Shown: positions 6,962-33,557 of the stretch, piece after piece
Layout of the letters: every line of letters starts with the position of its first letter
Numbering within the stretch: the first letter of the stretch is position 1
Origin: Anaerolineae bacterium
GTDB taxonomy: Bacteria; Chloroflexota; Anaerolineae; B4-G1; SLSP01
NCBI GenBank assembly: GCA_034435555.1
Contig: DAOTXC010000120.1
Location: forward strand, 3,132-67,131
Direction of reading: 5' to 3'
Length of the DNA: 64,000 nt
Made by a program: the position numbers and the translations under genes
Notes under the pieces: model-generated
What the model was told of the DNA's origin: nothing
Databases searched by the model: none
The model's input: only the letters and a program-made list of their open reading frames with translations

Positions 6962-9082
6962 ATGAGTAAGAAAAAAGAAGCACCAATCAACAAAGTACGC
7001 ATCATTGGGATTTTTGCCCACGTGGATGCAGGAAAGACGACGACTACTGAGTCAATTTTATACTACACCGGGCGGATTCACCGCGCCGGCAACATTGACG
7101 ATGGCAACACCCAAATGGACTTCATGGAGCAGGAGCGCGAGCGCGGCATCACTATCATGTCGGCAGCGACCGCCTGCCACTGGGAAGGCCACCGCATCAA
7201 CATCATTGATACGCCCGGCCACATTGACTTCACCGCCGAGGTAATCCGCTCCATCCGCGTCATTGACGGCGCGGTGATGATCCTCTGCGGCGTCGGCGGC
7301 GTGGAACCACAGACCGAGGCGGTCTGGCTCCACGCCAACACGGAGCGCCTGCCGCGCCTCATCTTCGTGAACAAGCTCGACCGCGTCGGCGCGGATTTCG
7401 AGCGCGTACTCGGCGAGATCCACGAGCGGCTCTCGCCCAATGCCATCCCCATCACGTTGCCCGTAGGCACAGAAGAAGATTTCAGCGGCATCGTGGATCT
7501 GCTGCACGAACGGGCGCTCACCTGGCAGCCCGGCGAGGATGATCCCACCGTTGGTCCTATCCCGGAGGAGATGGCCGACGCCGTCGCCGCCGCGCGCGAG
7601 CGGCTGATTGATGCCATCTGCGAGACCGACGAAGCCCTGCTGCTCCAACGGCTTGAGGGCGAGGAAATTGACGCGGCAACGCTCCAGGCCGCGCTGCGCA
7701 CCGCCACCATCAGCAGCGACCTGATCCCCGTGCTCTGCGGCACGAGTCGCAACCGCATCGGCGTGCAACCGCTGCTGGATGCCATCATCACTTACCTCCC
7801 CGCCCCAACCGACATGCCGCCGGTGCTCGGCCATAATCCATTCAAAGAAGCAGAGATCATCGAGCGGCCTGATGATCCCACCGCCCCCTTCTGCGCCTCC
7901 GCCTTCAAAATTGTCACCGACCCACACGTCGGCCACCTCACCTGGGTGCGCGTCTTCTCCGGGCAGATGAGTGCAGGCGACACGGTTTACAATCCGCGCA
8001 CCGACGAGACCGAGCGCATCGGTCGCATCTACCGGATGCACGCCAACCGCCGCGAGCAGGTGGACACGATGTCCGCCAGCGATGTGGTGGCGATCGTCGG
8101 CATCAAAGAGGCGCTCACCGGCGATACACTCTGCGATCCTGAGCGCCCCATCACGCTGGAGCACTTCCACTTCCCGGAGCCGGTCATCGCCGTGGCCCTC
8201 GCACCTAGCGCGACGAAAGAGCGCGAGAAGCTCCATCAGGCCGTCATCCGCCTCTGCGATGAGGATCCGACGCTCGTGCAACAGGTGGATGCCGAGACGG
8301 GTGAGCTCACCCTCGCAGGGATGGGCGAGCTGCATCTGGAAGTGACCATTGACCGGCTGCGGAGCGAGTTCGGGCTGCGGCCACAGGCCAGCTCGCCACA
8401 GGTCTCCTACCGCGAGACCGTGCGCCGCCCCGTCACCCTGAAGACCACCTACAAGAAGCAGAGTGGCGGCCACGGGCACTTCGCCGAGGTCGAAATGGCT
8501 ATCGAGCCGTTGGCCCCTGAGGAGGCCGAAGAGGCGAAAGAAGGCGTCTATTTTGTCAGCGCAGCGCCGCCTGCAGATTTGCCGCGCGAGTTCTGGCGGC
8601 CCACGGAGCTGGGACTGCGACGGGCGCTGGCCCAGGGCGTGATCGCCGGCTTCCCGGTACAACAGGTCAAAGTCACGCTGACCGACGGGCGCATCCACGA
8701 GGTGGACTCCGCCAGCATGGACTTCGAGATCTGCGGCGGTATGGCGGCGCGCCAACTGGTGCGCGCAGGTCAGCCCGCCCTGCTCGAACCCATCATGCGG
8801 ATTGACATCAACGTCCCGGAGGAGTACGTGGGCAACATCGTGGCCGACATCGGGCGGCGGCGCGGGCAGGTGAACGCGATGCGCGTGCGCGGGCAACTGC
8901 GTAACGTTGATGGCGAAGTGCCCCTCGCAGAAGCACGGGGCTACGCCACTACCCTGCGCAGCATGACACAGGGACGCGGCACCTTCACGTTGGAGTTCAA
9001 GCGCTACGACGTCGTTCCCGATGAGATCGCCGAGGAGGTCATCGCCGAGCGCAAGGCCGCCGGGAAGATACCGGAGCGGTAA
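6962..9082 (+). CDS. fusA: Elongation factor G (stand-alone paralog, EF-G2-like)
   Basis: G1 motif AHVDAGKTTTTE. DTPGHIDF. NKLDR. Full five-domain length of 706 aa. Not flanked by rpsL/rpsG/tuf, so probably the second EF-G copy. Confidence 0.9.
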   Translation: MSKKKEAPINKVRIIGIFAHVDAGKTTTTESILYYTGRIHRAGNIDDGNTQMDFMEQERERGITIMSAATACHWEGHRINIIDTPGHIDFTAEVIRSIRVIDGAVMILCGVGGVEPQTEAVWLHANTERLPRLIFVNKLDRVGADFERVLGEIHERLSPNAIPITLPVGTEEDFSGIVDLLHERALTWQPGEDDPTVGPIPEEMADAVAAARERLIDAICETDEALLLQRLEGEEIDAATLQAALRTATISSDLIPVLCGTSRNRIGVQPLLDAIITYLPAPTDMPPVLGHNPFKEAEIIERPDDPTAPFCASAFKIVTDPHVGHLTWVRVFSGQMSAGDTVYNPRTDETERIGRIYRMHANRREQVDTMSASDVVAIVGIKEALTGDTLCDPERPITLEHFHFPEPVIAVALAPSATKEREKLHQAVIRLCDEDPTLVQQVDAETGELTLAGMGELHLEVTIDRLRSEFGLRPQASSPQVSYRETVRRPVTLKTTYKKQSGGHGHFAEVEMAIEPLAPEEAEEAKEGVYFVSAAPPADLPREFWRPTELGLRRALAQGVIAGFPVQQVKVTLTDGRIHEVDSASMDFEICGGMAARQLVRAGQPALLEPIMRIDINVPEEYVGNIVADIGRRRGQVNAMRVRGQLRNVDGEVPLAEARGYATTLRSMTQGRGTFTLEFKRYDVVPDEIAEEVIAERKAAGKIPER

Positions 9083-17811: not shown

Positions 17812-19002
<1,191 letters not shown>

Positions 19003-21023: not shown

Positions 21024-21192
21024 CCTCCACCTCCTCTCTCAAATCAGCAAATCAAAAAATCAGCGAAATAGCAACACTCTTTATTATACGCGCCCCGCCG
21101 CCAGAGTGCAAATCACCGAGAGAAGAAAGAGGTGAAGCGGCTCATCCGCGCATCGGGTCAGCCGCTATATTGTTCAAACGTGCAAATCCCTA

Positions 21193-21483
21193 TCACGATC
21201 CCTTTTTCAAGAGTTGTTGCAACAAGTCACCCAGGTCAGATTCCATCACGATCCCCGGCGTGCCCTGGAAGTTGATGGTGAGGTTCTCGATGACGACGGA
21301 CGCCCCACCTTCGATACCCTCCAACGGAATTCGAGCGGTGATCGGTTGCGACGCGGGTGGTGGCGGCGCTTCAGGTTCGCGCACGGGAGGCGGCGTAACC
21401 TGCGGCGGCGCTTCCAGCGGTGGGTCGGATTGAGCAACGGGTTCGGCTTGCCTGCCTCCGGCCCGGAGGGGCGCTACCACCAC
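21193..21483 (-). CDS. Hypothetical Pro-rich protein (uncertain)
   Basis: Third consecutive minus-strand ORF upstream of the ComEA-like gene. Low complexity, no motif. Confidence 0.25.
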   Translation of the reverse strand: MVVAPLRAGGRQAEPVAQSDPPLEAPPQVTPPPVREPEAPPPPASQPITARIPLEGIEGGASVVIENLTINFQGTPGIVMESDLGDLLQQLLKKGS

Positions 21484-21658
21484 GATCTCGTTCCGCTAGG
21501 GATAGCGGCAAGTCACAAGGGATATTTCGCGTCTGGCGTGCAACTTTCACGCTGTAATTCCGTAATACACTTACAGAGAATGTGACTCATTCGCGCCACG
21601 TGCGCTACGTAAGTGATTTTTGGATTTGCTGATTTGCAGATTTTTACGGAGGTGTATG

Positions 21659-21880
21659 ATGATTGACACGAGTAAAATTCATTGGCTGTTGTGGCCGTTT
21701 GCCGCGCTGTGGAACCTGCTCTGCTGGATTCTGCAGGTGACCGGACGCCTGATCGCAGCAATTTTGGGGCTGGTCATCTTCATCGTCGGGATTGTGCTGA
21801 CGCTGACCGTGATTGGCGCGATTGTGGGCATCCCGCTGGCGATCTTCGGCCTGTTGCTGATGGTGCGGGCGATCTTCTAG
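21659..21880 (+). CDS. Small hydrophobic membrane protein (two TM), hypothetical
   Basis: 74 aa. GGAGG lies 6 nt before the ATG at 21659. The track ORF begins at a TTG inside the GATTT repeat element and is probably too long. Confidence 0.5.
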   Translation: MIDTSKIHWLLWPFAALWNLLCWILQVTGRLIAAILGLVIFIVGIVLTLTVIGAIVGIPLAIFGLLLMVRAIF

Positions 21881-21958
21881 ACCAAAGCACAGAAACCACA
21901 AAAAAGCGTGGGGCGCGTCCATTTTCAGGACGCGCCCCACGTTATCGCCAGGACAGCG

Positions 21959-24547
<2,589 letters not shown>

Positions 24548-24652
24548 CCCCCCTCAAAAATCAGTAAAATCGCCATGCTACTTTCATTCTAACCGATTCA
24601 CATTAGAAGCCCATTAACGCCATATAAGAAGCATCTTTGCGCCGGGCAGATG

Positions 24653-24680
24653 TTGACCAAACCGGGGAACAGGCTATAAT
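24653..24680 (+). promoter_or_regulatory. sigma70-like promoter candidate TTGACC-N16-TATAAT for the TPR gene
   Basis: Read directly. It implies use of the second ATG (24702) as start, given the SD AAAGGA at 24688-93. Confidence 0.3.
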
Positions 24681-28566: not shown

Positions 28567-28576
28567 AGTTTTATCT

Positions 28577-28611
28577 CCTTGAAAATCTGAAAATCAGCAA
28601 ATCTAAAAATC
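28577..28611 (-). promoter_or_regulatory. Leader element: four tandem 8-nt GATTTNNN repeats abutting the SD of the CN-hydrolase gene
   Basis: mRNA sense: GATTTTTA GATTTGCT GATTTTCA GATTTTCA AGGAG ATAAAACT AUG. A near-identical element lies at 21614-21646. Confidence 0.5.
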
Positions 28612-32764: not shown

Positions 32765-33184
32765 ATGAAAGTATTGGCCTTCAATGCTGATCTTTGCACG
32801 GGCGCGCGCGAGTGCGAGGCCGCCTGCGCTCAGACATGGTTCAAGGTGCAAGACGCCGCCAAATCCAGCATCCGCATCAGCACGAAAGATAACGGCTTCA
32901 GCGCCGCGTTCTGCATTCAGTGCGGCAAGTGCATCGAGGTTTGCCCCACCGAGGCGCTTTACTACAACAAGCAGGGTGTCGTCCTGCTGAAGAAAGACCT
33001 GTGCGTGGGCTGTATGTCGTGTGTGGGCTTCTGCCCCTACGACGTGATGTACTTCGCGCCGGAAGAGGCCATCGCCTTCAAGTGCGTCGCCTGCGGGCAG
33101 TGCGTCAAAGCGTGCCCAAATGACGCGCTGAAGATCGTGGAGGTCGAAGAGGCTTCTACAGATGTGTGGAATTTGCGATTTTAG
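32765..33184 (+). CDS. Poly-ferredoxin (three or four 4Fe-4S cluster motifs), probable electron partner of AOR
   Basis: CIQCGKCIEVCP. CVGCMSCVGFCP. CVACGQCVKACP cluster motifs. 139 aa. Confidence 0.8.
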   Translation: MKVLAFNADLCTGARECEAACAQTWFKVQDAAKSSIRISTKDNGFSAAFCIQCGKCIEVCPTEALYYNKQGVVLLKKDLCVGCMSCVGFCPYDVMYFAPEEAIAFKCVACGQCVKACPNDALKIVEVEEASTDVWNLRF

Positions 33185-33236
33185 ATTTGGGAGATTTCAC
33201 CGCAAAGACGCAAAGATTTCAGAGAGGGCTTGACGA

Positions 33237-33557
33237 TTGGAACACATAACAATTCTGAAACAAATTCAGCAGCAGACCATTACCGAACAGCTGCGCCTTA
33301 CACAACACGCCCAACAGGAAATGGTCGAAGAGGACATTGTCTTGGATGATGTCCTTGAAGCAATCGCCACAGGCCAAATTCTGGAATACTATCCGGAGTA
33401 TCGGCGCGGAGCCTGTTGCCTATTAGGCGGTTATACATATACGGGGCGTGCGCTACACATCGTATGTACCACAGCAAATCCAATCTTGATTATTATCACC
33501 GTTTATGTTCCCTTACCGCCTAAGTGGGTCACACCAACACAGAGGAGCGAGACATGA
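33237..33557 (+). CDS. DUF4258-family protein (toxin-like component)
   Basis: Small protein with a C-terminal hydrophobic beta-rich block typical of DUF4258. TTG start preceded by AGAGAGGG. Overlaps the next gene by 4 nt. Confidence 0.5.
   Translation: MEHITILKQIQQQTITEQLRLTQHAQQEMVEEDIVLDDVLEAIATGQILEYYPEYRRGACCLLGGYTYTGRALHIVCTTANPILIIITVYVPLPPKWVTPTQRSET

Follow-up and report, generated by a model that had tools for sequence, protein, structure and literature searches.

Introduction

Leaders built of repeated short motifs are acted upon by proteins such as TRAP (GAG/UAG, 11 repeats), HutP (UAG repeats) and CsrA (GGA). As in the element described here, short conserved cores are separated in these leaders by short variable spacers, and the sites overlap or abut the ribosome-binding site (RBS). 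Other leaders rely on base composition: A/U-rich sequences located 5′ of the Shine-Dalgarno (SD) sequence have been described as the class of translational enhancers that is most abundant in bacteria (PMC2176067), and a 5′ tail without structure can be used by ribosomes as a standby site (PMC5934652). In filamentous cyanobacteria, heptamer repeats termed STRR have been described, the function of which is still unknown (PMC2670836).

The DNA analyzed here is a stretch of 64,000 nucleotides from a member of the Anaerolineae (hereafter the window, to which coordinates refer unless a locus is named). It includes, in front of a small membrane-protein gene, an octamer array for which the STRR heptamer repeats of filamentous cyanobacteria are the closest described phenomenon. 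Both are made of short (7-8 nt) units arranged head to tail, lie in intergenic regions or leaders, occur in many dispersed copies and often as inverted pairs, and have unit sequences that are specific to a lineage. Unlike STRR, the units in the window are of 8 nt and not of 7, the arrays are short, heterogeneous, fused to an SD and oriented in sense only, the host belongs to the Anaerolineae (Chloroflexota) and is not a heterocystous or filamentous cyanobacterium, and the repeat family is also found in Bacteroidota. With the A/U-rich enhancers and standby sites of E. coli, which depend on bS1, the array shares the location of an A/U-rich tract directly 5′ of the SD in a leader predicted to be transcribed, the association with unrelated genes and the lack of a conserved secondary structure. 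It differs from them in its invariant GAUUU core, which recurs in phase every 8 nt, in forming a near-identical dispersed module in one lineage, and in that the computed RBS accessibility is not improved by its presence. From the TRAP, HutP and CsrA leaders it differs in core and period; in addition, the genes located behind it have no pathway in common, and leaders of orthologous genes do not conserve it.

Results

An octamer array directly precedes the SD of a conserved small membrane-protein gene

The array (21615-21647, + strand) is an imperfect tandem of the octamer GATTTKNN, about 32 nt long. Its four units, as read from the sequence, are GATTTTTG (at 21615), GATTTGCT (21623), GATTTGCA (21631) and GATTTTTAC (21639). 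The program TRF calls a period of 8 at 21623-21643, and also at 21040-21074 and 28580-28611. The SD GGAGG (21648-21652, + strand) follows directly after the last unit, and is in turn followed by three nucleotides (tgt) and by two consecutive start codons, ATG 21656 and ATG 21659. The initial annotation had reported a GATTT array in front of a small membrane-protein gene, and our reading of array, GGAGG and ATGATG agrees with it. When chance occurrence was evaluated in the 64-kb window, the three-unit pattern GATTTNNNGATTTNNNGATTT (at most one mismatch) had five matches vs 0.00 expected from 100 shuffles, and the two-unit pattern GATTTNNNGATTT had eight vs 0.07 expected from shuffles. A phased four-unit score of at least 16/20 was reached in none of 20 shuffles of the window. 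The array is far beyond chance, and the original observation is confirmed.

The ORF downstream of the array (21656-21880, + strand) is a real and conserved small membrane-protein gene. It encodes a hydrophobic protein of 73-74 aa, with a coding log-odds of 0.49 per codon and a GC3 of 0.81. The protein has 289 homologues, which among the matches listed are mostly of 73-78 aa, and the few of them with a named source come from Anaerolineae or Chloroflexi. The Pfam family DUF5362 matches it with 19.8 bits (E 7.5e-4), under the 25-bit gathering threshold, and some homologues carry a precomputed PF17319 match.

The list of ORFs includes an in-frame ORF that runs from TTG 21620 to 21880 and is open through the repeat. 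This open frame favors the view that translation includes the repeat and extends the membrane protein at its N terminus, a view which we nevertheless find hardly credible. The listed homologues, mostly of 73-78 aa, begin at the ATG. When 28 small-protein sequences were aligned, 23 of them begin at the aligned Met, the closest relatives beginning with MIDT, and the upstream extensions of the other five (4-20 residues) are unrelated to the peptide that the repeat would encode. GGAGG is located 3-6 nt before the ATGs, no SD lies in front of TTG 21620, and the orthologues are entirely devoid of the repeat. The suggestion that the TTG 21620 extension is an artefact is hence well founded, both on the 23 of 28 sequences starting at the aligned Met and on the lack of an SD before the TTG. 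It had also been proposed that translation starts at 21659. Public records do call ATG 21659 and not the TTG, among them a 73-aa homologue (P0001) that is 100% identical to the protein of the window; ATG 21656 is equally compatible, and the proposal stands with respect to the TTG but not as a choice between the two ATGs. The exact 74-aa protein is absent from public records because public gene calls begin at 21659. For gene callers, it is of practical relevance that repeats of this kind can be open in frame, as in this case, and can then give rise to false N-terminal extensions.

Beyond the stop codon, a strong GC-rich hairpin of 14 bp (21907-21941) separates the small-protein gene from clpB, which converges on it, and a T-run is present on the clpB side only. 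It may be a terminator shared by both genes.

Copies of the array and its SD precede unrelated genes

A sibling module is present on the opposite strand (28575-28611, - strand). It reads GATTTTTA GATTTGCT GATTTTCA GATTTTC AAGGAG, and ATG 28566 of a CN-hydrolase gene follows after 8 nt. Considering array plus GGAG, the modules 21615-21651 and 28575-28611 are both of 37 nt and identical at 33 of 37 positions (89%), and they form the second-longest inverted pair in the window. By direct reading, the four differences (positions 8, 22, 31 and 33) all lie outside the GATTT cores. That the layout is the same as the one at 28577 was already claimed in the initial annotation and is borne out by these arms, 89% complementary to each other and with units, SD and start in the same order.

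Further copies, which the initial annotation of this array did not list, were found in front of other genes; their arrays lie at 21041-21061, 18979-19002 and 24556-24571 (all - strand). A three-unit copy (21030-21061, - strand), GATTTTTT GATTTGCT GATTTGAG, is followed by AGGAGG and by ATG 21023 of an HHH/ComEA-like gene (hereafter HHH). A decayed copy (18971-19002, - strand), GATTTGCT GATTCACA GCTTTTCC AAGAGGAG, precedes ATG 18960 of tgt, and a two-unit copy (24548-24571, - strand), GATTTTACT GATTTTT GAGGGGGG, precedes ATG 24541 of clpB, a gene called at 860 aa. A weak GATTT-type leader (33169-33228, + strand) extends over the 3′ end of a ferredoxin gene. In that part of the window (32765-33556), a toxin-like DUF4258 gene with an apparent start at TTG 33237 comes next to the gene for the 4Fe-4S ferredoxin, on its downstream side, and its leader overlaps the ferredoxin stop codon.

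All five to six copies of the window are in sense orientation and end within 0-5 nt of an SD. When leaders are aligned, likeness between copies is confined to the array and the SD, the flanks being unlike. The arrangement of two units, SD and start has seven overlapping matches in four leaders of the window, and its antisense type has none. GATTT cores are intact in 11 of the 11 units of the three good copies, a figure that partly reflects ascertainment, and differences occur only in the spacers. At positions -60 to -6 of 39 SD-led starts, GATTT is the top pentamer (20 occurrences, 8.9-fold enriched) and outnumbers AGGAG; its complement AAATC occurs there 7 times. The order of the unlike units (GATTTTTN, GATTTGCT, GATTTKNN) is kept between copies, therefore pointing to a block that was copied whole and not to independent slippage at each site.

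The distribution of the copies is uneven. Between 18.9 and 28.7 kb the array is present at five of the six SD-led starts vs 0-1 of 33 in the remainder of the window (Fisher p about 1e-5, for a region picked post hoc), that is, at least five such leaders within about 10 kb. It is absent at rpsU and at a 706-aa gene (6962-9082), which we take to be EF-G. The genes located behind the arrays code for unrelated products (membrane protein, CN hydrolase, HHH protein, Tgt and ClpB), and this fits a generic expression module and not a riboswitch. They are not obviously highly expressed, which counts against reading the array as an enhancer.

The features of these copies raise the question of a specific trans-acting factor, either an RNA-binding protein recognizing GAUUU every 8 nt or an sRNA with AAAUC repeats, by which the neighboring genes would be joined in one post-transcriptional regulon. 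Such a protein could act in the manner of TRAP, HutP or CsrA, or be a cold-shock-domain, Hfq or four-helix-bundle protein. A conserved 5-nt core with variable 3-nt spacers, a unit order that is fixed across copies, the presence at five of six neighboring SD-led starts and a constant location at the SD, from which a bound factor would govern initiation, are all consistent with such a factor, and the same octamer arrays elsewhere bracket TIGR02436/PF05635 (Avd-like) genes, a hint of a protein partner. We consider this explanation unlikely, as the window includes neither a candidate factor nor an antisense array, the genes lack a functional link, their orthologues in relatives lack the site, and the conservation of the core is partly built into the search for copies.

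Several known signals were also compared with the array and rejected. Chi- or KOPS-like polar signals do not agree with copies on both strands and a monotonic GC skew; the NusG pause motif TTNTTT was found in one copy only; the elemental pause consensus is out of register; and extended pairing with the anti-SD is not expected from upstream bases that are U-rich and not A-rich. GAUUU presumably fits the RNase E consensus (RN↓WUU).

The array is tied to the ribosome-binding site and not to the promoter

Motif comparison revealed a predicted ECF-sigma-type promoter upstream of the array (21539-21564, + strand), with a -35 element TGCAACTTT (21539-21547), 13 nt of spacer and a -10 element CGTA (21561-21564). 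Its core can be written as TGCAAC-N16-CGTA. We compared it with 80 metagenomic loci orthologous for the small protein (L122-L201), which yielded 42 distinct upstream regions. The motif TG[CA]AAC[CT]-N15-CGTA, with identical spacing, is found in the window and in 18 of these 42 regions. The window motif fits the ECF consensus tGAAACnTTTt / CGTA (PMC5758882) in its -35 AAC plus T-tract, its spacer of ~16 nt and its -10 CGT(A/C). The small-protein gene is predicted to be driven by this conserved ECF-sigma-type promoter, and the small membrane-protein family probably belongs to an envelope-stress regulon in Anaerolineae. From the promoter, we infer a putative transcription start site near 21571, so that the array would cover approximately +45 to +77 in a 5′ UTR of ~85 nt.

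Some further features of these upstream regions can be mentioned. In several orthologues of the small protein, CGTA lies within a short palindrome, e.g., CACGTAATTGAATTACGTG in L122. In locus L205, an ECF sigma gene is located ~2 kb downstream. An internal promoter predicted inside the array (TTTGCA-16-TATGAT) was discarded as an artefact, its "-10" being the start codon. Back-to-back divergent promoters are present between clpB and a TPR-acetyltransferase-MFS operon (24653-24680, + strand; 24591-24586, - strand). The one on the TPR side is a near-consensus TTGACC-16-TATAAT followed by a short leader without array, among the few array-free units in 18.9-28.7 kb.

For the HHH gene, a promoter TTTGCA-18-TATAAT (21112-21083) puts the array at about +16, and for clpB a -10-like TAGAAT (24591-24586) puts it at about +9. 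The predicted distance between promoter and array is thus ~+9, ~+16 and ~+45, and the distance between array and SD is 0-5 nt throughout. With the SD distance fixed and the promoter distance variable, the array appears tied to the ribosome-binding site, which argues for an association at the level of translation or RNA and not for an operator.

This bears directly on the proposal of a DNA-level operator or roadblock, with a repressor or nucleoid protein sitting on direct repeats past the promoters. Such a protein would find repeats that are direct and that follow the predicted -10 elements, and a unit that resembles a -35-like TTTGCA, and the wider repeat family, described below, shows no orientation preference. 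It would however have to act from ~+9 to ~+45 relative to promoters of different sigma classes (ECF-type and sigma-70-type) while keeping its distance to the SD constant, and with a period of 8 bp successive sites fall on different helix faces. Neither is there a match to the CtsR heptad operator, which has a 10-bp period and the sequence GGTCAAA, the array having another period and another core. We regard an operator as improbable.

The leaders do not share a common fold

A search of the whole window against Rfam 15 at the gathering threshold gave no match, and when E values up to 10 were accepted for 21480-21720, a spurious snoRNA match of 11.5 bits was the only result. Folding of the leaders of four copies gave z-scores of -1.43, +0.61, -0.45 and +1.06, none of them significant, and the MFE structures differ from each other; folds computed at 37°C and 60°C did not reveal a structure common to the copies either. 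In these MFE folds the SD is paired in the small-protein leader, with upstream sequence outside the array, and in the HHH and clpB leaders, with U-rich leader sequence that includes in part array units.

We also computed the cost of opening the RBS in five leaders. In none of them did the native array reduce this cost relative to controls in which it was shuffled or replaced by random genomic sequence, the fraction of controls with a dG(open) at or below the native one being 0.18-0.83. As the native cost lies within the controls, the version of the hypothesis in which the array keeps the RBS open is without computational support. The array lacks the features of a structured riboregulator: there is neither a common fold nor conservation in orthologous leaders.

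The folds also allow the evaluation of a fourU-type RNA thermometer, in which U tracts would pair with the purine-rich SD in the cold and melt upon heat or stress. Such a device would suit clpB, a heat-shock gene, as well as an ECF-controlled gene, and the clpB and HHH folds, in which the SD region is paired with U-rich, partly array sequence, largely melt at 60°C. The copies, however, have no hairpin architecture in common, and the SD of the small-protein gene pairs with upstream sequence that is not part of the array. Furthermore, none of the fold z-scores reaches significance, the energies of opening do not set the native leaders apart from controls, and neither tgt nor the CN-hydrolase gene is a stress gene. 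A thermometer is very improbable.

The array is absent from relatives and kept within the species

Conservation was checked in the 80 metagenomic orthologous loci and by looking up the closest homologues, and the array was seen only in contigs of the same species. None of the 42 distinct orthologous small-protein leaders (53-74% protein identity) carries it; many of them are short, with the SD within about 10 nt of CGTA. The closest other species, L205 (81%) and L207/L208 (79%), have syntenic leaders without the array. L208 is syntenic for the small protein, clpB, the acetyltransferase and the CN hydrolase, and the array is present in none of its three orthologous leaders. In an unbiased set of 298 kb of other Anaerolineae DNA, neither arrays of three units (scoring at least 14/15) nor arrays of the leader type were present, and only four phased GATTT pairs were found in it vs 10 in the 64-kb window. 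Judged from these comparisons, the array is lineage-specific and most likely a young gain, and not a conserved riboregulator.

In contigs of the same species from other samples (99.9-100% identical) every copy is kept. Between the window and contig L202, of the same species and from another sample (99.88% identical), the five leaders compared differ solely by an additional T within the T-run of the HHH array (window 21049-21056). As no more than two indels occur in 20 kb, this one included, the arrays are prone to indels.

The divergent intergenic region of 551 nt between the HHH and small-protein genes (21062-21614) is flanked by an inverted array pair (21041-21061 / 21615-21646; 23 nt, 96% complementary). 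A 96-aa proline-rich ORF in this region (21193-21483, - strand), although publicly called, has a log-odds of 0.08 per codon, i.e., it is barely coding, and no family match. We considered and rejected the inverted pair as the TIRs of a mobile cassette: the inner 551 nt include the own promoters of both genes, and one of these promoters is also conserved where orthologues have no array; the inner ORFs score as non-coding, without family matches and without a four-helix-bundle homologue.

The array belongs to a wider family of octamer repeats

A scan for GATTTNNNGATTTGCTGATTT with one genome per species gave at least 120 loci (L001-L120), mostly from Anaerolineae/Chloroflexota MAGs (GC about 0.6) and from Bacteroidota. 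Among the matches listed, arrays have 3-30 units and are mostly (GATTTGCY)n. The junction of array and SD found in the window recurs in the Chloroflexota MAGs L008, L023, L059, L072, L086 and L099. Arrays located 5′ of genes are, among the matches listed, 17 in sense vs 15 in antisense, and this lack of orientation preference is more readily reconciled with a repeat at the DNA level than with a specific signal in RNA. Apart from the seed arrays, the 374 kb of DNA around the seed matches yielded only two further arrays. By its sequence, the array of the window is a member of the (GATTTGCY)n family of octamer short tandem repeats, which occurs patchily in some Chloroflexota and Bacteroidota; hence, two distant phyla share an STRR-like repeat family. 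We found neither a paper in which the repeat sequence appears nor one on octamer repeats.

In Bacteroidota (Capnocytophaga, Saprospiraceae, Flavobacteriia; e.g., L005, L016, L033, L049 and L068), arrays of the type (GATTTGCT/GATTTGTC/AATTTGCC)n are common, and the same octamer arrays occur in a few presumed Bacteroidota phages (viral loci L220-L222, L226 and L232). Octamer arrays often adjoin other arrays of 7-8-mers, such as CATTGGCT and GATGTGCT, or CCCTGAT in the Anaerolineae locus L006. The 26 matches of a scan of viral contigs were set aside as uninformative, being either coding coincidences in an AT-rich phage gene family or arrays of the Bacteroidota type.

At seven of the at least 120 loci, the immediate neighbor of the array is a four-helix-bundle gene of the TIGR02436/PF05635 type (Avd / 23S-IVS-protein-like). 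Inverted octamer arrays bracket such a gene in L059 (2337-2867), L032 (1793-2500) and L063 (1-560), and an array is found beside one in L014, L049, L100 and L111 as well. Three Chloroflexota MAGs have in common the order larA-like gene, (AAATCNGC)n, four-helix-bundle gene, (GATTTGCY)n and SD-gnd; the downstream arm at these loci comprises 2-30 units, the last of which reaches the SD of gnd. This larA-4HB-gnd arrangement resembles a cassette, the arms of which could form a long stem. The window has the same octamer arrays as these 23S rRNA IVS / four-helix-bundle cassettes, where they are inverted (L059, L032, L063) and where, too, an arm ends at an SD. It differs in lacking the gene: jackhmmer detected no four-helix-bundle homologue in the window, and the best tblastn E value was 0.24. 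With this gene missing and the region between the inverted pair being non-coding, the arrays of the window are solo, and the link is circumstantial. No paper tying four-helix-bundle genes to flanking repeats was found; the octamer arms beside these genes provide a lead on the role of a very common family.

A broader version of the trans-acting hypothesis, also unlikely, can be formulated with these loci in mind. The GAUUU-octamer leader would be a genuine cis signal through which some Chloroflexota and Bacteroidota exert a hitherto undescribed kind of post-transcriptional control, forming a multivalent platform on the RBS of several neighboring genes. The reader bound every 8 nt might be an Avd-like four-helix-bundle protein, an sRNA, or a cold-shock-domain or Hfq-type protein, and the platform would move between leaders as a copy-and-paste module of array and SD.

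Discussion

The interpretation that we favor, with a probability of about 0.4, is that of a recently and locally copied module made of a U-rich leader and an SD, which, if functional, would be a putative A/U-rich standby or enhancer site. The octamer array would be transcribed within the 5′ UTR of the small membrane-protein gene, ~45 nt past the ECF-type promoter and abutting GGAGG. Array and SD would constitute a portable module of ~37 nt, copied before at least four other unrelated first genes within ~10 kb. The U-rich stretch 5′ of the SD may serve as an A/U-rich translational enhancer or as a standby site for the 30S subunit (bS1). Local copying, by gene conversion or template switching, plus slippage may have spread the module, which would be retained where A/U-rich sequence is tolerated or favored. 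Among the possibilities considered, an enhancer or standby site fits best a transcribed, sense-oriented, U-rich block that lies on the SD of unrelated genes. It is weakened by the lack of a gain in RBS access, by the evolutionary dispensability of the array and by the lack of orientation preference in the wider family.

Nearly as likely, although tentative as well, is that the array is a neutral or selfish short tandem repeat, free of function, which is found near SDs through tolerance of A/T-rich sequence and spreads by gene conversion and slippage. This would account for the array missing in the nearest species and in every orthologous leader, for the patchy, genome-specific distribution and for the arrays of 3-30 units that other MAGs show in both orientations relative to genes. 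It would also account for one of the two indels in 20 kb between 99.88% identical strains hitting an array T-run, for the lack of a gain in accessibility and for the clustering of copies in 10 kb, and the STRR 7-mers of cyanobacteria are a precedent (PMC2670836). Less easily explained by a neutral repeat are the copies of the window being all in sense and all at 5 nt or less from an SD, the SD being part of the module, and the three good copies having an intact GATTT core in each of their 11 units, in part an effect of ascertainment. If the repeat were neutral, the window would provide a clean bacterial case of microsatellite-like DNA homing to the last nucleotides before the Shine-Dalgarno sequence.

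If, as in the interpretation that we favor, initiation is enhanced or gated by the module, the Chloroflexota would possess a ribosome-binding leader that is made of repeats and portable by nature, in a phylum whose gene expression signals are almost unstudied. It would mean that regulatory 5′ UTRs can be made and spread within one genome over very short evolutionary time, and that array length, 3-30 units elsewhere, could be a simple evolutionary tuning knob.
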